Origin: Candidatus Methylomirabilota bacterium
Lineage (GTDB): Bacteria > Desulfobacterota > Binatia > Bin18
DNA: 64,000 nucleotides
Assembly (NCBI GenBank): GCA_035575235.1
Contig: DATLYA010000316.1
Span: forward strand, 32,245 to 96,244
Reading direction: 5' to 3'
Shown here: in pieces, positions 52,985-63,649 of the stretch
How positions within the stretch are numbered: the first letter of the stretch is position 1
Layout of the letters: the number at the start of each line of letters is the position of its first letter
Notes under the pieces: model-generated
Seen by the model: only the letters and a program-made list of their open reading frames with translations
Database searches by the model: none
What the model was told of the DNA's origin: nothing
Made by a program: the position numbers and the translations under genes

Positions 52985-53024
52985 CTGTGGAGGTCATCTC
53001 AAGACAGGGGCTGCTCCGACGCTA

Positions 53025-54515
53025 TCACAGTTTGAGCCACACACTCTTGACTTGCGTATACAGTTCCAGCGCGTGGACGCCCAGTTCGCGCCCAAAGCCG
53101 CTCTGCTTGTACCCGCCAAACGGTGAGATGGGATCAAGCTGATTGTAGCAGTTCACCCATACCGTGCCTGCGCGCAACGCACGGGCGAGGCGATGCGCCT
53201 TGGAGACATCGCGTGTCCACACTCCGGCGGCGAGACCATAGATGGTGTTATTCGCCTGGCGGATCACATCAGCCTCATCTTTGAACGGAATGGCCGCCAC
53301 GACCGGCCCAAAAATCTCTTCCTGCGCGACCCGCATTGAATTGTTGACGTTTGTCAATACGGTAGGCTTGACGAAATAGCCCCTCCCGAGCGCTCGATTC
53401 GCCTCCCCACCAACCTTGACCTGCGCGCCTTCCTGCTTGCCGATATCGATGTAGCCCAACACGCGCTCATATTGTTCCTGCGATACTAACGGACCAAGAC
53501 GGGAGTCTTTATCCAGCCCAGGCCCTTGCTTCAGTGAAGCTGCGGACGATGCGAGCGTATCGGTGAATTGATCGTAGATTTTCTGCTCGACAAACAAGCG
53601 CGAGCCGGCGCAGCACACTTGTCCCTGGTTAAAGAAGATGCCCATGAACGCGCCTGCGGCCGCGGCATCCTGATCCGCATCAAGAAACACGATGTTGGGA
53701 GACTTGCCGCCGAGTTCAAGGGAGACGCGTTTAAGGTTCCCGGCGGACGCCTTGAGAATTTCTTTTCCTACTTCCGTCGAGCCCGTAAACGCAATCTTAT
53801 CAACCTGCGGATGGTTGGCCAGCGCAGCGCCCGCCGTAGGGCCAAAGCCCGGCACGATATTGACCACGCCTGCAGGTACGCCAGCCTCCAGCAATAACTC
53901 CCCGAGCCGCAGTGCAGTGAGCGGCGTCTGTTCGGCGGGTTTGAGGATGACGGTATTCCCGCACGCCAAGGCCGGCGCGAGCTTCCACGCCGCCATCAGC
54001 AACGGGAAATTCCACGGAATAATTTGTCCACATACGCCCACCGGCTCCCGCAGCGTGTAGTTGAAGAAGGCCGGATCCGACGGGTTCGTCTCCCCGTAAA
54101 TCTTGGTCGGCCACCCGGCATAGTAGCGAAAAGTCTCTGCTGCACCGGGAATATCTACATGCCGCGATTCAAAGATAGTCTTGCCATTATCCAAGGTCTC
54201 CAACTGCGCTAACTCCTCGCTGTGTTGATCAATCAGATCAGCAATCCGTAACAACACTTTGGTGCGCTCGGAGGGCTTCATCTGTGGCCAGGGCCCTTCA
54301 TCAAATGCTTTGCGAGCAGCCTCGACCGCGCGGTTGATGTCTTCCGCATCACCTTCCGCCACGAGAGCCAGGGTTTCTGCCGTCGCGGGATTTACAGTCG
54401 CGAACGTTTTTCCCGAGGCGGCGTCTACCCACTTCCCGCCGATCAGCATCTTTTTACTGCTCGGCGTAATAAAATCGCGGACCGCTTCCGGTAGAGCTTG
54501 TGATACTTGACCCAT
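53025..54515 (-). CDS. NAD(P)+-dependent aldehyde dehydrogenase
   Basis: VSLELGGKSP and FFNQGQVCCAGSR (catalytic Cys). ATG at 54515 after GAGGAGG. Confidence 0.9.
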   Translation of the reverse strand: MGQVSQALPEAVRDFITPSSKKMLIGGKWVDAASGKTFATVNPATAETLALVAEGDAEDINRAVEAARKAFDEGPWPQMKPSERTKVLLRIADLIDQHSEELAQLETLDNGKTIFESRHVDIPGAAETFRYYAGWPTKIYGETNPSDPAFFNYTLREPVGVCGQIIPWNFPLLMAAWKLAPALACGNTVILKPAEQTPLTALRLGELLLEAGVPAGVVNIVPGFGPTAGAALANHPQVDKIAFTGSTEVGKEILKASAGNLKRVSLELGGKSPNIVFLDADQDAAAAGAFMGIFFNQGQVCCAGSRLFVEQKIYDQFTDTLASSAASLKQGPGLDKDSRLGPLVSQEQYERVLGYIDIGKQEGAQVKVGGEANRALGRGYFVKPTVLTNVNNSMRVAQEEIFGPVVAAIPFKDEADVIRQANNTIYGLAAGVWTRDVSKAHRLARALRAGTVWVNCYNQLDPISPFGGYKQSGFGRELGVHALELYTQVKSVWLKL

Positions 54516-54549
54516 ATGAATACCTCCTCTCAATATTCAGTCGCTAATG

Positions 54550-55491
54550 TTAAGATTGTTTTGTCGAGCCCTCTCGATTTTGCACAAATTGCCAGCCGAA
54601 GCGTCCTTTAATGCAGAGGTGCCCATGGCTCACGTCGTGATCAAGCGGCGACGTTGCTTTGACAATACGATTATCCTGCACATGGAGCGTGAGCGTACAA
54701 CCGACTCCACAATAGGGACAAATGGTGTCAGTCTGCGTCTGCTTACCCTCATCCCAGGTTCCGGCTTGCCGCATCTCGTACTCACTGCGAAACATCAGGG
54801 CGCCGGTGGGGCACACGCCGATACAGTTGCCGCAATACACACAGGCAGAATCAGGCAGAGGAACGGCAAACTCAGTAGAAATACGCGCGTCAAAGCCCCG
54901 CCCCGCCACCGCAATGGCGAAGGTGTTCTGCGCATCTGTCCCGCAGGCTTCCACACATTTGTAGCAGAGGATACAGCGGGAATAATCGCGAATGTAGAGA
55001 TTATTATCCATCTTCACCGGCTGGGCGACAGTGGCGGCAGTAACGCCATCCGGCGCAGGATGCTGGCCGGTGTGACGATGATCGCGCTCCCCGCCAGCGG
55101 CAGGCGGACCAAAACGTTCAGGATGGGCGCCATACTGTTGCAGATAGGCCTTCACCACCGGCGCGACGGAAAGATCGGCTGAAGACGCAAGAAACTCCAA
55201 AACGAGACGGCGGCTGAGCCGCACGCGTTCCGAATCCGTTCGCACGACCATGCCTTGTTCGACTTTCCGCGAGCAAGCAGGAACAAGGGTGCGCGAGCCT
55301 TCCACTTCCACCACGCACACCCGACACACGTTGACCGGGGTCAGATTTTCCAGGTAACACAGCATCGGTGTCGAAATATTCCGCGAACGACAGGCGTCCA
55401 GCAGCGTCGCACCTTCCGGAACACGGACAGGCTGTCCATCAATAGTTAACTCGACAATACGGTTGAGAGTGGTGGAGAATACGGCAGCCAT
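54550..55491 (-). CDS. NuoG/FdsA N-terminal-like Fe-S subunit ([2Fe-2S] + [4Fe-4S] clusters, including the molybdopterin-enzyme FS0 domain), detached from the catalytic domain
   Basis: TIDGQPVRVPEGATLLDAC...CRVCVVEV, CILCYKCVEAC, CVYCGNCIGVCPTGAL. Then ICPYCGVGCTLTLHV...HLCIKGRFGWQF, then stop. Confidence 0.85.
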   Translation of the reverse strand: MAAVFSTTLNRIVELTIDGQPVRVPEGATLLDACRSRNISTPMLCYLENLTPVNVCRVCVVEVEGSRTLVPACSRKVEQGMVVRTDSERVRLSRRLVLEFLASSADLSVAPVVKAYLQQYGAHPERFGPPAAGGERDHRHTGQHPAPDGVTAATVAQPVKMDNNLYIRDYSRCILCYKCVEACGTDAQNTFAIAVAGRGFDARISTEFAVPLPDSACVYCGNCIGVCPTGALMFRSEYEMRQAGTWDEGKQTQTDTICPYCGVGCTLTLHVQDNRIVKATSPLDHDVSHGHLCIKGRFGWQFVQNREGSTKQS

Positions 55492-55504
55492 AGGCTTCTC
55501 ATGA

Positions 55505-57349
55505 TCAGAAAATTTTCAACTTTGTGAGGGCAGATTCGATCGCGCTGGCGGCAGTCTGTCCCAGACCACAAATCGAGGCATCGCGCATGACCTGGCTAAT
55601 CTCCGCGCGGAGTGTCAATTCATTTTGGAGAGATCCGAGCAGATGTTGAGAGTGCATACGTTGCAGCCATTCCTCTTGCCGCACGGTCCCCACTCGACAG
55701 GGAACGCATTGACCGCAGGACTCGTCACGGAAAAAAGCGGCGATACGACGCAGTATTGCTTTGATATCGATGGCATCGTCAAACACCATGACCACGCCGG
55801 AACCGAGCGTTGCGCCGATCGCGCGCACCCCTTCAAACGTCAGCGGCGTATCGAGTTGATCGGGCGTCATAAACACCCCAGCCGCGCCGCCAAGCAGCAC
55901 GGTCTGTAGGGACCGTTGGTTCCGCACACCGCCCGCCAGCGCCAATAATTGGCGCAGAGTTATGCCAAACTCGACCTCGTACACGCCTGGATGCGTGACA
56001 CAGCCGGAGACACAAAAGAGTTTTGTGCCGGTAGAGCCTGACGTACCAGTAGCAGCAAAAGCAGGGCCGCCCTGCAATACGATATCGAGAACATTCACCA
56101 ACGTCTCGACGTTGTTAATCACCGTCGGTTTCCCAAACAGTCCATGCTGCACCGGGAACGGCGGTTTGTTGCGCGGCTCGCCTCGATACCCTTCAATGGA
56201 ATTGAGCAGCGCGGTTTCTTCTCCACAAATATACGCGCCTGCCCCACGGCGAAGTTCGATATCGAAACGAAACCCGCGCCCCATCACATTTTCACCCAGC
56301 AGACCACGAGCACGGGCTTGGGCAATAGCGTTTTGCAAGCGTCTAGCCGCCAAGGGATATTCACCGCGGATGTAGATGTAGCCGTGCTCACAATTTGTTG
56401 CGAATCCGGCGATCGTCATCGCTTCCAGCAGCGCGAACGGATCTCCCTCCATTACCACCCGGTCTTTAAACGTGCCAGGCTCCGATTCGTCCGCATTACA
56501 GACGAGATAATGGGGACGCGCGGCGGCGCGAGCGACGGCTTCCCATTTTCTCCCCATCGGGAAAGCTGCTCCGCCACGCCCTAAAAGCTTGGAGTCGTTG
56601 ACCTCGCGGATTACTCCTTCAGGGCCAAGCTCGATAGCGCGACGTAATGCCGCGTATCCACCATGGGAGCGATAAGAGTCCAGATTCGTCGGATCAGCAA
56701 CGCCAACCCGCCGGAGTAAATGCAGGCGCGGATCACCACCTTGAGGAATTGCTATTTGTCGAGCCTCGGGGTGAAACTTGTCTTGTACAGCATTGACAAT
56801 CTCTGCCGCCCTCGTCGGCGCAAGCGCCCGTCCTTCCGCCGTAGAGCCAGCCGTAAGGACAAGCGCCGCCGGCGCACGGTCACAGAGTCCTAAGCAGGGA
56901 CTGCGATGCCAAGCGGCTTGACCGTTCTTGTTGGCGGAGCCCGCGGGACCAAGTCTCTGCTCCAGTTCCACGCAGACCTGCGCTGCGCCGTTCGCCAGAC
57001 ACGCGATATCATCACAGACATGCACCGCGACTGGCGGCTGCGGCGTCAAAGAGAACAGCGCGTAGAAACTCGCCACGCCATATGCTTCGGCGGGAGGAAT
57101 ATCGAGCCGCTGGCAAATATAATTGAGCGCTTCAGGGCTAATCCATCCCATACGATCCTGCACCGCGTGGAGCGTGGGCAGCAGCAAATGGCGTTGTGCG
57201 CGGAGCGCATGACCACCCCGCGCCTTGCGCCCGTCTTTCGCGATGTCGCGTCTTCCGCCTGTCCAGCCAGACTCTGGAGGACCCAATACCGCATCGACTG
57301 CTGCTTGCTCTTCTGGTTTGGCTGGAATCTCACGTAACCGCAGGTCCAT
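55505..57349 (-). CDS. NuoE-NuoF-like fusion (NAD(P)H/FMN-binding diaphorase subunit, FdsG/FdsB type)
   Basis: NuoE part is LPTLHAVQDRMGWIS...HVCDDIAC...SPCLGLCDRAP. NuoF part is GRGGAAFPMGRKW, ...ESEPGTFKDR..., ...ESCGQCVPCRVGT. Confidence 0.85.
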   Translation of the reverse strand: MDLRLREIPAKPEEQAAVDAVLGPPESGWTGGRRDIAKDGRKARGGHALRAQRHLLLPTLHAVQDRMGWISPEALNYICQRLDIPPAEAYGVASFYALFSLTPQPPVAVHVCDDIACLANGAAQVCVELEQRLGPAGSANKNGQAAWHRSPCLGLCDRAPAALVLTAGSTAEGRALAPTRAAEIVNAVQDKFHPEARQIAIPQGGDPRLHLLRRVGVADPTNLDSYRSHGGYAALRRAIELGPEGVIREVNDSKLLGRGGAAFPMGRKWEAVARAAARPHYLVCNADESEPGTFKDRVVMEGDPFALLEAMTIAGFATNCEHGYIYIRGEYPLAARRLQNAIAQARARGLLGENVMGRGFRFDIELRRGAGAYICGEETALLNSIEGYRGEPRNKPPFPVQHGLFGKPTVINNVETLVNVLDIVLQGGPAFAATGTSGSTGTKLFCVSGCVTHPGVYEVEFGITLRQLLALAGGVRNQRSLQTVLLGGAAGVFMTPDQLDTPLTFEGVRAIGATLGSGVVMVFDDAIDIKAILRRIAAFFRDESCGQCVPCRVGTVRQEEWLQRMHSQHLLGSLQNELTLRAEISQVMRDASICGLGQTAASAIESALTKLKIF

Positions 57350-57379
57350 GTTGGTCTCTCATGACTTCTCTCTGGTTCC

Positions 57380-59332
57380 TTAATCAGGCTGACCCGTGCG
57401 CAACACACTCTCGCTGGACGAAGTCAGTCCCACACCGACACGTTCCAGCTTCTCAATGCGAATCGCCGTTGCTTTGAATTCCGCCGTTCCCGACTTCGGA
57501 TCGATTGCTTCAATGGTCAACTGATTCGTGTCTACTTCATCAGGGAAATGCAACGTCATGAACGCCAAACCGGGACGAAGGGAGGCATCATAGCGCACTG
57601 GGGCCACAATCGAGCCTCGACGCGAAGAGATACGCACTCGTTCTCCATCGCTGACTCCATACCGCAGTCCATCCTCGGGCGAGAGATCCAGCGTCTCACC
57701 GCGCCGTAGCGGTGAGCGATAGCCGCCGCTTTGGACGCCGGTATTGTACGAATCGAGCCGACGCCCTGTCGTCAGACGAATTGGGAAATCCTCATCCACT
57801 CGATCAACCGGCGGATCATGTTCAACAGCATGAAACGGCGCTCTTGGGCCTTTGACCGGCTCTTCCCATAAACGACCGTGGAGAAAGGGCGATCCCGGAT
57901 GCGTTTCGTCATAACATGGCCACTGCAGGCCGCCATGTTCCTCCAGCCGCGCATAGCTCATGCCGGCATGATTGGGACTGAGACGACGCACTTCATTCCA
58001 TACGGCTTCTGCTGTTGGTTGACCCCATGCATACCCGAGCCGATCGGCAAGAGCGCAAATGATGGCAATATCATCACGGGCTTGTCCCGGCGGGTTCAAC
58101 GCTTTCCGCACCCGCTGCACGCGGCGTTCACTATTCGTGACTGTTCCTTCGGCTTCGCACCAGCTAGCAGCTGCAGGGAGGACGACGTCTGCCAATTCCG
58201 CCGTGGCGGTCAGGAAAATGTCCTGCACGACCAGATGCTCAAGTCCTTTGAGGAGGTGCAGCGCGTGCGACACATCAGCCTCTGACTGCGCAGGGTTTTC
58301 ACCAATTACATATAAGGTGGTCAGCTCCTTCCGTTCCATCGCCTCGAACATGGCGCTCAGATGCCAGCCGCGTTTGGGAGGAATCTTCTTGCCCCATGCT
58401 GCTTCAAATTTGGCGCGCACCACACCATCTTCGACATGCTGGAATCCAGGAAGGCGGTCCGGGAGAGCACCCATATCACCGCCACCCTGCACATTGTTTT
58501 GGCCGCGTAAGGGATTGAGTCCAGAGCCATAGCGACCTACATGGCCAGTCAATAACGCCAGATTGATGAGCGCCAGCACGTTGTCCACGGCATTGTGATG
58601 TTCGGTAATGCCTAACGTCCAGCAGATCATCGCCCGGTCCGCACGAGCATACGCATGCGCCAGCTCGCGGATCAACGCGGCAGGCACGCCGGTTTCACGC
58701 TCCGCATAGTCGAGCGTGTACTTCTCCGCCGTCGAACGGTACTCTGCAAACCCCGTCGTAGCGCGTACGATGAACTCTTGGTTGGCCAATCCTGCGGCGA
58801 TGATTTCTCGCCCCATCGCATTGGCCAACACGATGTCTGTGCCGACATCAAGCCCAAGCCATCCATCCGCCCATTGCGCTGAACTCGTGCGCCGTGGATC
58901 AACGACATAGAGCCGCGCGCCCCGGTGGATGGCTTTCAGCACGTGGTGAAAAAAGATCGGATGCGCCTCTCGCGCGTTCGATCCCCACAAGATAATCAGG
59001 TCGGTCTCTTCCACCTCTTTATACGAGCTGGTGCCGCCCCCTGCGCCAAAGACTGTCGCCAGACCGGCGACGCTCGGCGCGTGTCAAGTGCGATTGCAAC
59101 TATCAATGTTATTGCTGCCAATCACCAGCCTGGCGAACTTTTGGGCCATGAAATTCGTCTCGTTCGAAGCTTTCGAACAGCTAAAGAGTCCAAACGTTCT
59201 CGGTCCATGCTTCTCTATGGCGCGTTGAAATCCTGTGGCAGCGCGCGTCAGCGCCTCATCCCACGAGACAGGACGGAGCTTACCGTTATTACGGACGAGC
59301 GGTTCGGTGAGACGAACATAAGAACGTTTCAT
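57380..59332 (-). CDS. fdhA: Formate dehydrogenase catalytic (Mo/W-bisPGD) subunit, selenocysteine-containing; in-frame UGA at 59084..59086
   Basis: ORFs 59084..59362 and 57380..59014 are in the same frame. Read-through gives NNIDSCNRT-U-HAPSVAGLATVFGAGGGTSSY, the FdhF-like RVUHGPSVA context. A SECIS lies downstream. Start is at ATG 59332 (MKRSYVRLTEPLVR) or 59362. Confidence 0.85.
59043..59083 (-). promoter_or_regulatory. Bacterial SECIS element
   Basis: On the mRNA: UGA-CAC-GCGCC-GAGC-GUCGCC-GGUCU-GGCGAC-AGUCUUU-GGCGC. The GGUC apical loop starts 18 nt after UGA, as in E. coli fdhF. Confidence 0.7.
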
Positions 59333-59345
59333 ATCAGAGCCTTTC

Positions 59346-60230
59346 TTACCTATCGCAAGCAATTCGTTCCGGATGTGTATACACGTTAAAAGAGGAGTTG
59401 CGCAGAAAACCGACCAGCGTCAGGCCCAAGCGCTGCGCAGTTTGCACGGCAAGGCTGGACGGGGCTGACACGGCGCACACCAGAGGCGCGCGCGCCATGG
59501 CGGCTTTTTGCACAATTTCAAAACTCAGCCGACCTGAGACCATCAGCACCTGGTTCGCCAGTGAGGGCGCGCCTGCCAACACTTGATGTCCCACGATTTT
59601 ATCGACCGCGTTGTGACGCCCCACATCTTCCCGCAACACCAGCAAACGGCCAGCGGCGTCAAAAAGGCCCGTCGCATGCAAACCGCCAGTTTGCGCAAAG
59701 AGCTGCTGCCTTTGCCGCAGGACATGCGGCAACTCTACGAGCAGCGAACGCGCGATGACCAGGCCAGAAGCAACCGGAGCGCAACGGACCGCGACTTGTT
59801 CGAGCGAGGCTTTCCCACAAACGCCGCAACTCGACGTCGCATAAAAATTGCGCCGCAATGGCGCGGGATCAAACGGATGTGTGAGGGTTACTGTCACGGT
59901 ATTACACGGCTGCCCATCCAGTCGTCGCGTATTCGCTTCGATATCGCGAATCTCCGCACGAGCCTGAATCAGGCCTTCGGTCAACAAAAATCCCAGAGCT
60001 AACTCGTCGTCATGTCCTGGAGTGCGCATCGTGACGGCAACGTTGCACGCGTCCTGGTCCGGCCCTTGCACGCGAATCTCCAAAGGCTCTTCCGCGGCAA
60101 GCCAATCCGTGCGGCCGCGAACCTCATCATCTCGAACCGAGAGGAGCTGTGTTTTTACCACGCCTCCGTACTGACGCAGCAGGTCATTTTTCTTGTGCGC
60201 TGGTAACAAGAGCTGCCCTTTCTCGTTCAT
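59346..60230 (-). CDS. fdhD: FdhD formate dehydrogenase sulfurtransferase/accessory protein
   Basis: ...YATSSCGVCGKASLEQV... (FdhD Cys pair) and ...REDVGRHNAVDK... The start is ATG 60230 or 60269. Confidence 0.8.
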   Translation of the reverse strand: MNEKGQLLLPAHKKNDLLRQYGGVVKTQLLSVRDDEVRGRTDWLAAEEPLEIRVQGPDQDACNVAVTMRTPGHDDELALGFLLTEGLIQARAEIRDIEANTRRLDGQPCNTVTVTLTHPFDPAPLRRNFYATSSCGVCGKASLEQVAVRCAPVASGLVIARSLLVELPHVLRQRQQLFAQTGGLHATGLFDAAGRLLVLREDVGRHNAVDKIVGHQVLAGAPSLANQVLMVSGRLSFEIVQKAAMARAPLVCAVSAPSSLAVQTAQRLGLTLVGFLRNSSFNVYTHPERIACDR

Positions 60231-60286
60231 GAGAGTGCAAAGCCCGCTATCGTTATGCCAAACCAGCATAACGATCAGTAAAAAAT

Positions 60287-60622
60287 TTATGTCTGTTGAA
60301 AGGCTTTCTTAAATTTCCTGTGTACTAATCCTTTCAAGCCTGCGGTAAACTTATGAAAATGCCGTACATACTCGCGTCCTTCCGGCGTCAGACAAGTTCC
60401 ACCGCCATGCTTCCCTCCCACTGCTCTTTGCGTAAGCTTCACGCCAAGACCTTCTTCCATTTCCTTCAGTTTCCGCCAGGCCACGCGAAAATGCACCCCG
60501 CGCTCGGCGGCAGCCGCATTGATGGACCCAGTGCGCTCCACTGCTTCCAAGAGCGCGATCCGCCACTCACTCAAGACAACTTTTCCATCTTTCTCTAGCC
60601 AAAAGTTGGAACGCGGCTCCAT
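60287..60622 (-). CDS. ModE-N-terminal-like winged-helix regulator (no Mop/TOBE domain)
   Basis: ...WRIALLEAVERTGSINAAAAERGVHFRVAWRKLKEMEEGLGVKLTQRAVGGKHGGGTCLTPEG matches the ModE N-domain pattern (GSIs.AA...SY+.AW..i...n......GG..GGga.LT..G). Confidence 0.65.
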   Translation of the reverse strand: MEPRSNFWLEKDGKVVLSEWRIALLEAVERTGSINAAAAERGVHFRVAWRKLKEMEEGLGVKLTQRAVGGKHGGGTCLTPEGREYVRHFHKFTAGLKGLVHRKFKKAFQQT

Positions 60623-60720
60623 AGGGTTTGCATCTTTCAATATTCTCTATAAGTCATTACAATGGAACATTAAAAGACACAAGCCTTATGCATAGAAATC
60701 ACATTGTGTTTATTCCCTCC

Positions 60721-62268
60721 CTAGAACGCGAACAGTGCATCAAGTTGCATGCGATTTACGGCAGAATTCGGTTGATTATGCGGACGGTCGATGAAGTTCA
60801 CAAAGTATCCCTTGGCCGTCAAAGTGAGGCGCGGGAGCAGCATGTAATCGAATTTGACGATGGGACCTTGCACGTTCGTTCCGCCGCGCCGACCGAAGTC
60901 GCTGAGCGTGAACATGGAAATGACGGAGTCGGTCTCCACACGCGTCCAGGCCGCCGAGAGGGCCACGTCGCCAGGATCACGCGTCTGGCCAATGCCCGCT
61001 CCAATGATATAGGCGTCATCCATGCCGAAGGCCGCTTCAGTGTTGTGCGCATAATCCACCATGAGCGTGAACGGCCACTTGGCATAGCCGGTGTCCAACG
61101 CCAATTGTGCGCCGGCATTCACGATATTAAACCCGCCAGCAAAACGTTGAATGGGATTAGTCGTGCTCGGCGTAATCAGATCTCCGCCACGCACCACTTG
61201 GCCATTTCTCAGTTTGACGGAATTGGTCAACACCAACGCACTATTGCGGTTACGCTCCTGCGCCACCGCATCGGAACGAAAGAAATAGTAATCCCCGGCC
61301 GCTAGCGTCAGTTGCGTCTTCGGCGTCGGGGCAACGGTGGCCTGCAGTTGCTCACCGATCATGTAGGAGTCCCGCTCCGCCGCGAACTCCTTAATCGCCC
61401 ACTGCCCTGCCGCCAGTTTTATGCTTCTGAGCCAATCTTTTCCTTCAAAGACCGTAACTTCTTCCGCCGCCCCTTCCGGCGTCAGATCTTCATCAAACAC
61501 TAACTCCGAGCTCATAATAGCGCGCGGGCGGAAGAAGTTGACGCTAAACTTACCGCCGGTAACCGAAAAGAATGACTTCTCAAGGCCAATGCTCCTGCCC
61601 GGCCTAAGAGTGATATACGCATTGTCAATGTTGATCGGCTTGCGAGTGAAGACATCAGTCAGCGTCTGGTTATTGGCGGCGATCTCATTGGGATCACCGC
61701 TGACCAATCGCAGGCCGCCTTCAATCTCGTCATTCACCGCAATACGTGCGCCCACTCGTAAGCGCAATCGTTGACGATTGCGCGCGTGAACATCTTCCTG
61801 ATAGAATCCCTCATGTCGCACACGGATATCGCCAAAGAAGGTAAAGCGGTTGAGCCAGTCAATGTTCTTCTTGACATCGGCCACGGCGGTCCTCCTCAGC
61901 TCTGCCATCGCTTGATTCTGCTTCTCAGCCTGCGCTTGAGCTTGCTGCTGCAAGGCGTGTTGTTGTGACTCCAGGCGCGATAAGCGCTCGCTCACCTCTG
62001 GCGCCACGGGAGCGGCGAGCACCGCAGAGGTTGAGGGTGCTTTGAGTTGCGCTAAGTCCTTCTCACTCAAGATGCCTTTTGCTTGGAGCAATTGAATCAG
62101 TGCATCATGTTCGGCTTTCGGCATCGTCGTTCTGCTTTTCTTTAGTCGCTGCGCTTCTTTCTTGCTCAACACTCCCTTCGATTGCAAAATATCTATAAGT
62201 GACCCCTCCTGTGCCTGTACTGCCCCCGCCATCATTAAGGTCAACACCACCGCCACTATCCGTGCCAT
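60721..62268 (-). CDS. Outer-membrane porin-like beta-barrel with duplicated N-terminal helical motif
   Basis: Signal peptide (..AGAVQAQ). LQSKGVLSKKEAQRLKK and LQAKGILSEKDLAQLK repeats. Coiled coil, then long alternating-strand region ending ...MQLDALFAF. Confidence 0.6.
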   Translation of the reverse strand: MARIVAVVLTLMMAGAVQAQEGSLIDILQSKGVLSKKEAQRLKKSRTTMPKAEHDALIQLLQAKGILSEKDLAQLKAPSTSAVLAAPVAPEVSERLSRLESQQHALQQQAQAQAEKQNQAMAELRRTAVADVKKNIDWLNRFTFFGDIRVRHEGFYQEDVHARNRQRLRLRVGARIAVNDEIEGGLRLVSGDPNEIAANNQTLTDVFTRKPINIDNAYITLRPGRSIGLEKSFFSVTGGKFSVNFFRPRAIMSSELVFDEDLTPEGAAEEVTVFEGKDWLRSIKLAAGQWAIKEFAAERDSYMIGEQLQATVAPTPKTQLTLAAGDYYFFRSDAVAQERNRNSALVLTNSVKLRNGQVVRGGDLITPSTTNPIQRFAGGFNIVNAGAQLALDTGYAKWPFTLMVDYAHNTEAAFGMDDAYIIGAGIGQTRDPGDVALSAAWTRVETDSVISMFTLSDFGRRGGTNVQGPIVKFDYMLLPRLTLTAKGYFVNFIDRPHNQPNSAVNRMQLDALFAF

Positions 62269-62804
62269 CGTTCCTCCTCTATCGCCAGCTCCACCGTGGT
62301 AAATAATTGTTCAAACTCTTGCCGTGCTTGCTCGAAATCGGGGTCAAATGCGCTGGTGGATTTGTCACCGACAAACGATGCGTCGATTTGTTCAATTAAC
62401 TGGCGCACCTGCATGCGCTGCGCGGGAGGCCACACAATCTGCCCGTCTTCCGCCTCTTCTAGATCCGCACTGAGAAACAGAAACCGGACGGACTCCTCCA
62501 TGGCGAATCGTTGCATCATGGCGTAGTCAGCGGCGCGGCGCGGATTCAAACACGGCCTACCCTGGATACGAAAACGCCCTGGCGCGTCCAGACAAAAGGG
62601 AATGGCGGTCACCCAGGTTCCCTGCGCATTCCGCCAGGTGCAGAATCCCACCCGGGCGCGGTATGCATGCTGAAAAGGAGTAAGGTCCTGCACCCGCATG
62701 GTCAACACCGGCTCGCGCCATTCCCGCATGACAATGAGCACGGAGGTATAAAGTGGGGCCTGAAGCATAAACGAATGAAAGGAAGGCAGTAACTCGGCTT
62801 TCAT
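62256..62804 (-). CDS. Hypothetical protein (182 aa)
   Basis: 4-nt overlap with the tupA-like stop and 13-nt overlap with the porin start. No family recognised. Confidence 0.5.
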   Translation of the reverse strand: MKAELLPSFHSFMLQAPLYTSVLIVMREWREPVLTMRVQDLTPFQHAYRARVGFCTWRNAQGTWVTAIPFCLDAPGRFRIQGRPCLNPRRAADYAMMQRFAMEESVRFLFLSADLEEAEDGQIVWPPAQRMQVRQLIEQIDASFVGDKSTSAFDPDFEQARQEFEQLFTTVELAIEEERWHG

Positions 62805-63649
62805 TTGCTCACCTCTCGGATGACGGCGTCTTCCGTCTTTCCCGCGTCTGGAGTGAATAACGGCTCGCCAAATTTCTCTTTGCCGAACGTCTTCAACAAG
62901 TCTTGCACGGTAGGAGACAACAAAAAATCGGCGAACGCCTTCCCGCCTTTGGCGTTCACCTTGGGAAACTTTTCCGGGTTCACTTCCATGACATGATAGA
63001 CGTTGAGAAACGCAGGGTCGCCTTCAAGCAACACGCTCAAGCCCGTAGTTTTCTGAAACGCCAGAAACGTCGCCCGGTCGGAGAGCACATACCCTTGCTT
63101 CTCGCCGGCAATGCTAAGGGTCTTGCCCATGCCCTGCCCAGCCTCTAAATACCAGTCGCCAGCCGGTTTGATCCCCGCCTGTTCCCATAGCTTCTTTTCG
63201 AGTTTATGCGTGCCGGAATCGTCCCCCCGTGAGACAAAGACCGCCTTTGCCTCGGCGATTTTTTTGAATGCATCAACAGCTTTGACTGTTCCTTTCACGT
63301 GCGCGGGATCAGCCGCCGGGCCGGCCAACAGAAACCAGTTATGCATCATCAGACGGCGGTTTATCAGCCCGCCATCAGCGACATATTTTTTCTCCGCCTC
63401 GGGCGCGTGCGCGAGCACGACATCCGCCTCACCTCTCCCCGCTAAGGCTAGCGCTTGCCCCGTGCCTACAGCCACCGCCTTGACGTGATAACCACTTTGT
63501 TTCTCAAAGATCGGCACGATGACATCGAGCAGTCCCGTGTCCTGCACGCTCGTCGTCGTGGCAAAGATTAATTCTTCCTGAGCAGCCGCGGCGCCAGCAC
63601 AGGCGAGCACAACGCCTACCAGCAGAGTAAGAAAGTGGCCCCTCCTCAT
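62801..63649 (-). CDS. tupA: Tungstate/molybdate ABC-transporter periplasmic binding protein (TupA-like)
   Basis: Signal peptide, then LIFATTTSVQDTGLLDVIVPIFEKQSGYHVKAVAVGTGQALALAGRGEADVVLAHAPEAE, the TupA TTTS..D(S/T)GLLD signature. GGGAGG RBS. Confidence 0.75.
   Translation of the reverse strand: MRRGHFLTLLVGVVLACAGAAAAQEELIFATTTSVQDTGLLDVIVPIFEKQSGYHVKAVAVGTGQALALAGRGEADVVLAHAPEAEKKYVADGGLINRRLMMHNWFLLAGPAADPAHVKGTVKAVDAFKKIAEAKAVFVSRGDDSGTHKLEKKLWEQAGIKPAGDWYLEAGQGMGKTLSIAGEKQGYVLSDRATFLAFQKTTGLSVLLEGDPAFLNVYHVMEVNPEKFPKVNAKGGKAFADFLLSPTVQDLLKTFGKEKFGEPLFTPDAGKTEDAVIREVSK

Follow-up and report, generated by a model that had tools for sequence, protein, structure and literature searches.

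A predicted selenocysteine-containing formate dehydrogenase whose FS0 domain is encoded apart from the catalytic subunit

Metal-dependent formate dehydrogenases (FDHs) are intensively studied as catalysts for CO2 reduction. Here we describe a predicted FDH gene cluster in a 64,000-nucleotide stretch of DNA from Candidatus Methylomirabilota bacterium (assembly GCA_035575235.1, contig DATLYA010000316.1, positions 32,245 to 96,244; this whole stretch is referred to as the window), in which the alpha subunit familiar from FdsA-type enzymes is divided between two genes. The cluster comprises six closely packed genes on the minus strand (60640..53025; Table 1). Following a ModE-like regulator, their order is fdhD, the catalytic subunit, a NuoE/NuoF fusion (hereafter NuoEF), an iron–sulfur (Fe-S) subunit and an aldehyde dehydrogenase (ALDH), with spacers of 13, 30, 13 and 16–34 nt, which matches the transcription order proposed in a preliminary description of this DNA. 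Consensus scans across the cluster returned no convincing internal promoter or terminator.

The divided alpha subunit

Pfam assigns the Fe-S protein Fer2_4, two ferredoxin-type 4Fe-4S motifs and Molybdop_Fe4S4 (PF04879, the FS0 domain), and no molybdopterin domain. FS0 occupies residues 253–305 of 313, such that the protein ends right after this domain, as had been proposed. Specifically, the [2Fe-2S] ligands are C45, C56, C59 and C73, the two ferredoxin-type [4Fe-4S] ligand sets are C173, C176, C179, C183 and C217, C220, C223, C227, and FS0 contributes C258, C261, C265 and C293, followed two residues later by Lys295. All 16 cluster cysteines are conserved in 119/119 homologues, the set over which cysteine and lysine conservation was counted, and both C293 and K295 are invariant. 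We take Lys295 to occupy the position of Lys44 in FdhH.

One cluster of FdsA-type proteins was not found in this subunit. The His/Cys3 (N5-type) cluster domain PF10588 has no match in the Fe-S protein, and the corresponding region is free of cysteine in the 119 homologues; some fused relatives likewise lack this cluster. A His-rich stretch, …GERDHRHTGQHPAP… (55110..55040, Fe-S residues ~128–151), takes up the position at which FdsA and NuoG coordinate their His/Cys3 [4Fe-4S] cluster, and across the family R136, D137 and H144 each show conservation of 90% or more.

The catalytic protein matches only Molybdopterin (PF00384, E 1.4e-73) and Molydop_binding (PF01568, E 7.3e-24), and PF04879 was absent from it in the Pfam scan. 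Against the Fdh-alpha model TIGR01591 it scores 657 bits, below the cut-off of 666.25, with the match beginning at model position 41. Its translation contains the active-site motifs CNRT-U-HAPSV, which holds selenocysteine (Sec) 83 and His84, and PLRGQNNVQG (motif classes, Sec/Cys-His and RGQ, taken from PMC8808070). Solved structures matched by this protein include the catalytic part of the MeFDH1 alpha subunit (408 bits) and FwdB.

With respect to the breakpoint, alignment to the fused alpha subunit of Rhodobacter capsulatus (FdsA, 6tg9_A) places Fe-S residues 13–306 on FdsA 25–306, with FS0 on the FdsA FS0 region, and catalytic residues 17–636 on FdsA 308–931. The two proteins therefore tile the fused chain with neither gap nor overlap, and the catalytic protein begins at the next conserved block, as the preliminary description had suggested. 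The break, at FdsA 306/308, falls within the short linker joining …GRFGWQFVQN to RLTEPLVR…. A second FS0 motif hidden by a mis-called start would have undone this picture. No such motif lies upstream of the catalytic ATG: the open frame extends back by just 10 codons, to 59362, none of them for Cys, and runs into fdhD, whose end is at 59346.

The same breakpoint picture is obtained with an unsplit 965-residue paralogue from the genome of the window. This Cys-type alpha subunit, which has an NADH-G_4Fe-4S_3 domain, is encoded on another contig (C296:3000-15000, locus L085), directly after genes for a tungsten-type aldehyde:ferredoxin oxidoreductase (598 aa), a MobA-like protein and a 559-residue NuoE/F fusion.

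The gene lying between the two alpha pieces encodes NuoEF, which contains a thioredoxin-like [2Fe-2S] domain, a flavin mononucleotide (FMN)/nicotinamide adenine dinucleotide (NAD(H)) site, an SLBB domain and an N3-type [4Fe-4S] domain. The last of these (PF10589, 532–610 of 614) is followed by no Fer4 domain; the C-terminal 2x[4Fe-4S] of HydB-type proteins is thus not present in NuoEF.

A selenocysteine codon in the catalytic gene

The preliminary description correctly gave each alpha piece its own start and stop, but left unmentioned that a TGA at 59086..59084 breaks the catalytic frame when it is read with translation table 11. The unsplit paralogue of the same genome has Cys at this position. 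Among related loci, TGA is found in all 67 of the 67 that cover the site.

The region immediately 3′ of this codon has the features of a selenocysteine insertion sequence (SECIS). A hairpin starts 4 nt past the UGA, with the apical part GUCGCC-GGUCU-GGCGAC, and presumably resembles the SECIS of E. coli fdhF. Across 61 distinct sequences, 89.5% of the SECIS cells are paired, compared with 21–63% in slid controls. At pair 20–28 the counts are UA 29, UG 17, CG 15 and unpaired 0. These compensatory changes alter the encoded residues (Ala/Val, Ala/Thr). The folding energy of the hairpin by itself is unexceptional (z = -1.0), and an Rfam search of 53000–61000 at E <= 1 returned no SECIS family.

The genome also encodes the machinery for Sec insertion. 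It contains selA (593 bits) with a tRNA-Sec(tca) gene adjoining, selD (385 bits), and a selB gene whose two pieces (238 and 183 bits) each lie at the end of a contig. On sequence grounds, then, the catalytic subunit is a predicted selenoprotein.

Two further observations concern these genes. The selD gene (C7:9986-12488) adjoins the C-terminal part of selB and holds one in-frame TGA; SelD is therefore probably a selenoprotein itself. The N-terminal part of selB lies at the start of the contig that holds the window (C316:3-593), and consequently the two contigs probably join there.

Table 1. Coordinates of the predicted FDH cluster and associated features in the window.
Feature	Size	Position	Strand	Basis or remark
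TupA-like tungstate/molybdate-binding protein		62801..63649	-	NF041772 202 bits, below cut-off 400
ModE-like helix-turn-helix (HTH) regulator	117 aa	60287..60640	-	Pfam HTH_1; first gene upstream of fdhD
fdhD, formate dehydrogenase accessory sulfurtransferase	307 aa	59346..60269	-	PF02634 E 1.8e-71
Catalytic subunit, FdhA-type	650 aa incl. Sec83	57380..59332	-	Molybdenum/tungsten (Mo/W)-bis-pyranopterin guanine dinucleotide (bisPGD) domains II–IV only
Predicted Sec codon, in-frame UGA (…NNIDSCNRT-U-HAPSV…)		59084..59086	-	Metal-ligand position
Predicted SECIS hairpin		59043..59080	-	Fold and pair counts
NuoE/NuoF fusion, FdhB-type diaphorase	614 aa	55505..57349	-	PF01257, PF01512, PF10531, PF10589
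NuoG/HoxU-like Fe-S subunit, FdhC-type	313 aa	54550..55491	-	Pfam and FdsA alignment
FS0 domain of Fe-S subunit	residues 253-305	54577..54735	-	PF04879 E 1.2e-20
NAD-type aldehyde dehydrogenase		53025..54533	-	PF00171 E 4e-192; last gene of cluster

Conservation and origin of the split layout

At least 8000 proteins of similar length matched the Fe-S protein, and the best 120 of these are all 290–392 aa long, with an identical domain set and 73–87% identity; more than 100 protein clusters of ~313 aa share the same ends. Scanning species-representative genomes gave 146 confirmed relatives; gene order was examined in 80 loci by tblastn with the proteins of the window. The order catalytic, NuoEF, Fe-S was found in 72/80, the remaining 8 being interrupted by contig ends, and no alternative order was seen among the 80. 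The survey of related genomes thus agrees with the earlier view that the split is no simple frameshift, as the pieces are separate genes whose order is kept.

The loci span about ten phyla. Their NCBI labels include Acidobacteriota (50), Actinomycetota (5), Thermomicrobiota (5), Chloroflexota (4), Pseudomonadota (3), Binatota (3), Gemmatimonadota (3) and Myxococcota (2), with one each from Planctomycetota, Verrucomicrobiota and Spirochaetota.

This conservation bears directly on whether an ordinary fused alpha gene merely appears split through an assembly chimera, a frameshifted pseudogene or a mis-called start. The quality of the source genome, a 418-contig draft with 5.6% contamination, leaves room for such an artefact, but the same genes, order and catalytic start recur in 72 independent assemblies, the numerous ~313-residue relatives end where the Fe-S protein ends, no Cys motif precedes the catalytic start, and the sole in-frame stop is the conserved Sec UGA. 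We regard this explanation as having virtually no chance of being correct and, for practical purposes, as refuted.

Beyond the three shared genes the layout varies. Among the 80 loci, fdhD lies upstream in 5, downstream in 10 and beyond the flank in 65, and an ALDH gene stands 3′ of the Fe-S gene solely in the window and in locus L002. The conserved core therefore consists of the catalytic, NuoEF and Fe-S genes. Within the lineage of the window the operon is patchy, occurring in 6/41 relatives (one family) and in 1/121 genomes sampled across the phylum. It is an accessory element there, and the split layout is a fixed design of a widespread family, not a peculiarity of one genome.

Some loci show local departures. 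Seven from Acidobacteriota (L017, L024, L038, L057, L062, L066 and L069) have ~1.5 kb separating the catalytic gene from the NuoEF gene. The one such gap that was inspected, in L017 (4559–6025), contains an unrelated 488-residue open reading frame (ORF) with a signal-peptide-like N-terminus, and is not the remnant of a second copy of the Fe-S module. In four loci from metagenome-assembled genomes (L027, L029, L052 and L073), the match to the catalytic protein or to NuoEF is spread over several frames, a pattern that looks due to single-base errors of assembly and not to biology.

In terms of flanking genes, the product of fdhD scores 295.7 bits against NF001943, exceeding the cut-off of 269, and contains an SCGVCG motif; the gene for this sulfurtransferase partner lies directly upstream of the catalytic gene. 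The ALDH gene encodes 502 aa when counted from TTG 54533, although its likely start is ATG 54515, which is preceded by GAGGAGG. The ModE-like regulator matches the ModE repressor domain TIGR00637 at 73 bits, under the cut-off, and a similar gene stands upstream of fdhD in L002 too. Farther upstream (60721..63649, minus strand), the TupA-like protein is followed by a 182-residue ORF, a 515-residue ORF and then the regulator. Neither ORF had a family match; the longer one has an apparent signal peptide. The TupA-like protein is possibly connected to metal supply, and together with the two ORFs and the regulator it may, as judged from gene content, serve the FDH as a unit for metal uptake and regulation.

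The history of the split was examined through the relatives of the catalytic protein. A HMMER search of 1.84 billion representative sequences showed that public predicted proteins of the split family are mostly fragments that begin just past the UGA. P0122 (550 aa), for example, has its residue 1 aligned to query residue 104, and P0122, P0124 and about 40 further matches illustrate this start after the Sec codon; annotation pipelines cut the gene short or break it up. Among full-length relatives, the nearest are fused proteins of ~900 aa, namely P0125 (911 aa, 47% identity, match 272–903) and P0130 (904 aa, 45%), and both are also among the best matches of the Fe-S subunit, at ~36% identity. 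At the P0125 locus, the fused alpha gene is preceded by a diaphorase gene, which bears on the likely ancestral order.

In a FastTree phylogeny of 114 catalytic domains with midpoint rooting, all 17 split sequences group together (support 100, stem 0.66). This clade lies inside a 99-supported group of 37, and 15 of the other 20 members are NuoG-fused. The gene fission of an FdsA-type alpha subunit posited in the preliminary description is supported by this placement of the split proteins as a single clade inside fused NuoG-type FdhA proteins. Phyla are intermixed within the clade, Planctomycetia grouping with Verrucomicrobiia and Thermomicrobiaceae, and Woeseiaceae with Vicinamibacterales; Actinomycetota loci L030, L049 and L064 also fall within it. 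FS0 is fused to the catalytic body across the superfamily, so a single fission with horizontal transfer is the economical reading. Taken together, the sequence relationships point to a layout that arose once, by fission of a fused ~900-residue alpha gene and a change of order, and then spread horizontally.

An alternative origin would be chimeric, with an FdhF/FdhH-type catalytic subunit having lost its FS0 while an unrelated HoxU-like Fe-S protein gained one. The solved structures closest to the catalytic protein are indeed small FdhF types (7qv7_S, 524 bits; 7bkb_D, 494; 1aa6_A, 457), ahead of FdsA at 414 bits, whereas for the Fe-S protein FdsA itself ranks first among solved structures. With much denser sampling, however, the catalytic domain is nested among fused ~900-residue proteins, the same fused group (P0130, P0125) supplies top matches to the Fe-S protein, and the two pieces fit together exactly along the fused chain. 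We therefore consider a chimeric origin very improbable.

With fission as the favoured origin, a plausible route to the permuted order would begin with tandem duplication of a diaphorase–alpha unit, (B-A)(B-A), followed by complementary deletions. If the first B and the Fe-S half of the first A were then lost, and the second A lost its catalytic half, A(cat)-B-A(FeS) would remain.

Two other proteins drew attention as possible FS0-less catalytic subunits. P0131 (661 aa) was rejected, as it has PF04879, lies at a contig start and shows no split. P0204 (620 aa, L092:6001-9827) is an FDH-like MopB protein with no recorded Molybdop_Fe4S4 match, trailed by a Fer4_22 protein and then by an FAD/NAD-binding DHODB-type protein; it may be an independent FS0-less catalytic subunit.

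The predicted enzyme and its relation to known systems

Within the literature searched, the split layout is described solely by Rohwerder et al. (2020, Front Microbiol 11:691, PMC7176365, Table 1 and Suppl. Fig. S4), for FDH3 of Actinomycetospora chiangmaiensis DSM 45062; it is not described in PMC8808070, PMC13397495, PMC13449736 or PMC5736913. FDH3 consists of FdhA3 (640 aa, U80), FdhB3 (614 aa) and FdhC3 (316 aa), with accessions WP_084681743.1, WP_018332443.1 and WP_018332444.1. Its alpha subunit was reported to be homologous just to the metallopterin part of other alphas, and its gamma subunit to be 'separate but homologous' to their N-terminal Fe-S domain (PMC7176365). The enzyme was predicted to be cytoplasmic and NAD+-linked, all three subunits were present in the proteome at 2–3-fold higher levels on 2-hydroxyisobutyrate, and formate removal by the organism required selenite (PMC7176365). 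That study neither places FS0 on FdhC3 nor surveys the distribution of the layout.

We consider it very likely that the cluster in the window encodes a soluble, three-subunit, Sec-containing and Mo/W-dependent FDH of the FDH3 type, the product of one fission event and subsequent horizontal spread. NuoEF has the [2Fe-2S], FMN/NAD(H) and N3-type domains and nothing more, and the enzyme is therefore read as an FdsABG-like formate:NAD+ oxidoreductase; acceptor, direction of catalysis and metal are provisional assignments. In the proposed complex, subunit A (catalytic) would hold the bis-PGD cofactor and Sec83/His84, with no Fe-S cluster of its own. Subunit C (the 313-residue protein) represents the N-terminal part of an FdsA/FdhA-type alpha subunit as a protein of its own, and its FS0 domain would dock in trans on A at the domain I site, placing the proximal [4Fe-4S] cluster and Lys295 beside the pterin. 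Electrons would then pass from FS0 through the two ferredoxin-type [4Fe-4S] clusters (and the [2Fe-2S] cluster) of C to the [4Fe-4S] cluster and FMN of B, the NuoE/NuoF fusion, which would reduce NAD+. In maturation, the cofactor would be sulfurated by FdhD, and SelB and tRNA-Sec would decode the UGA with the help of the SECIS hairpin.

The preliminary description inferred from the detached FS0 domain an unusual electron path between subunits. FS0 does reside on a separate polypeptide, but because none of the 16 cluster cysteines has been lost, nor the FS0 lysine, the path is probably the ordinary FdsA-type chain minus one covalent link.

The resemblance of NuoEF to subunits of bifurcating enzymes raises the question of whether this FDH is instead electron-bifurcating, ferredoxin-linked or mainly CO2-reducing. 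Its best solved matches are HydB-like, Bfu-type proteins (7t2r_B, 394 bits; also 9bov_B and 8oh5_B), slightly ahead of Cupriavidus necator FdsB (6vw7_B, 364 bits) and the MeFDH1 beta subunit (7e5z_B, 331 bits). NuoEF nonetheless stops at its N3-type cluster domain, short of the additional HydB clusters, the gene cluster holds no HydC-like or ferredoxin gene, and the Actinomycetospora enzyme is induced during aerobic, formate-producing growth (PMC7176365). Such a function therefore seems unlikely.

Several points weigh against the assignment of an NAD+-linked, FDH3-type enzyme derived by fission. The NAD+ specificity is read from domain homology, the three-protein complex is a prediction from sequence, and the closest solved relatives of NuoEF are, as noted, HydB-like subunits of bifurcating enzymes. 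An AlphaFold2 model of the Fe-S subunit alone (41-row alignment) was poor, with a mean predicted local distance difference test (pLDDT) score of 54. The polarity of the change, fission rather than fusion, rests on parsimony over the superfamily as a whole because of the program and midpoint rooting used for the tree. Finally, the architecture that the window shares with FDH3 is judged by sizes, domains and Sec position, not by sequence alignment.

The arrangement is of broader significance for this enzyme class. In all solved structures of metal-dependent FDHs known to us, the proximal [4Fe-4S] cluster is on the same chain as the metal site. The split family, which occurs across numerous soil phyla, departs from that rule and always uses selenocysteine; among Mo/W-bisPGD enzyme families known to us, it would be the only one whose proximal cluster is supplied in trans. 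Public sets hold its catalytic subunit mostly as post-UGA fragments, and as a result the capacity for formate oxidation in soil metagenomes is probably under-called. We raise more tentatively, as an idea that is more doubtful than not, that the split is a functional design in which the Sec- and pterin-bearing body would be translated first, matured alone through FdhD and cofactor insertion, and later capped by the Fe-S subunit; the family would then represent a widespread, always Sec-containing NAD-linked FDH of aerobic soil phyla that annotation pipelines cut at the UGA.

Among characterized systems, FdsABG(D) of R. capsulatus and C. necator (6TGA, 6TG9, 6VW7) has the same modules and the same presumed cluster chain. 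Its alpha subunit, however, is one ~958-residue chain with an active-site Cys and the extra His/Cys3 [4Fe-4S] cluster, whereas in the window alpha is split after FS0, carries the predicted Sec and lacks that cluster; the two pieces are separate genes with the NuoEF gene between them. NuoE (FdsG) and NuoF (FdsB) are likewise separate proteins in FdsABG(D), in contrast to the 614-residue fusion here. The tungsten enzyme MeFDH1 (Fdh1AB, Methylorubrum extorquens AM1; 7E5Z, 7VW6) shares a NuoE+NuoF fusion as its beta subunit, but its alpha subunit is a single fused chain of ~990 aa with Cys. A MopB chain divided between two polypeptides is also found in formylmethanofuran dehydrogenase (FwdB/FwdD, 5T5I), where the split removes the C-terminal cap domain (IV), not FS0. 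The HylABC-FdhF2 system of Clostridium acidurici and FdhF of the hydrogen-dependent CO2 reductase (HDCR; 7QV7) resemble the window in having the NuoG-like Fe-S module on a separate protein, but there (see PMC5736913) the break lies before FS0 and the catalytic chain keeps the proximal cluster, whereas the break in the window lies after it.

FDH3 is the closest counterpart. Subunits of 650, 614 and 313 aa with Sec83 in the window compare with 640, 614 and 316 aa with Sec80 in FDH3, and in both the beta subunit is a fusion of NuoE and NuoF; the differences are the host phylum and the fdhD and ALDH genes flanking the core in the window. As judged from its sequence, the cluster is a further example of this known but barely studied enzyme type, with FS0 on a separate polypeptide, and it adds another host lineage, one in which the operon is patchy, rather than a new mechanism.

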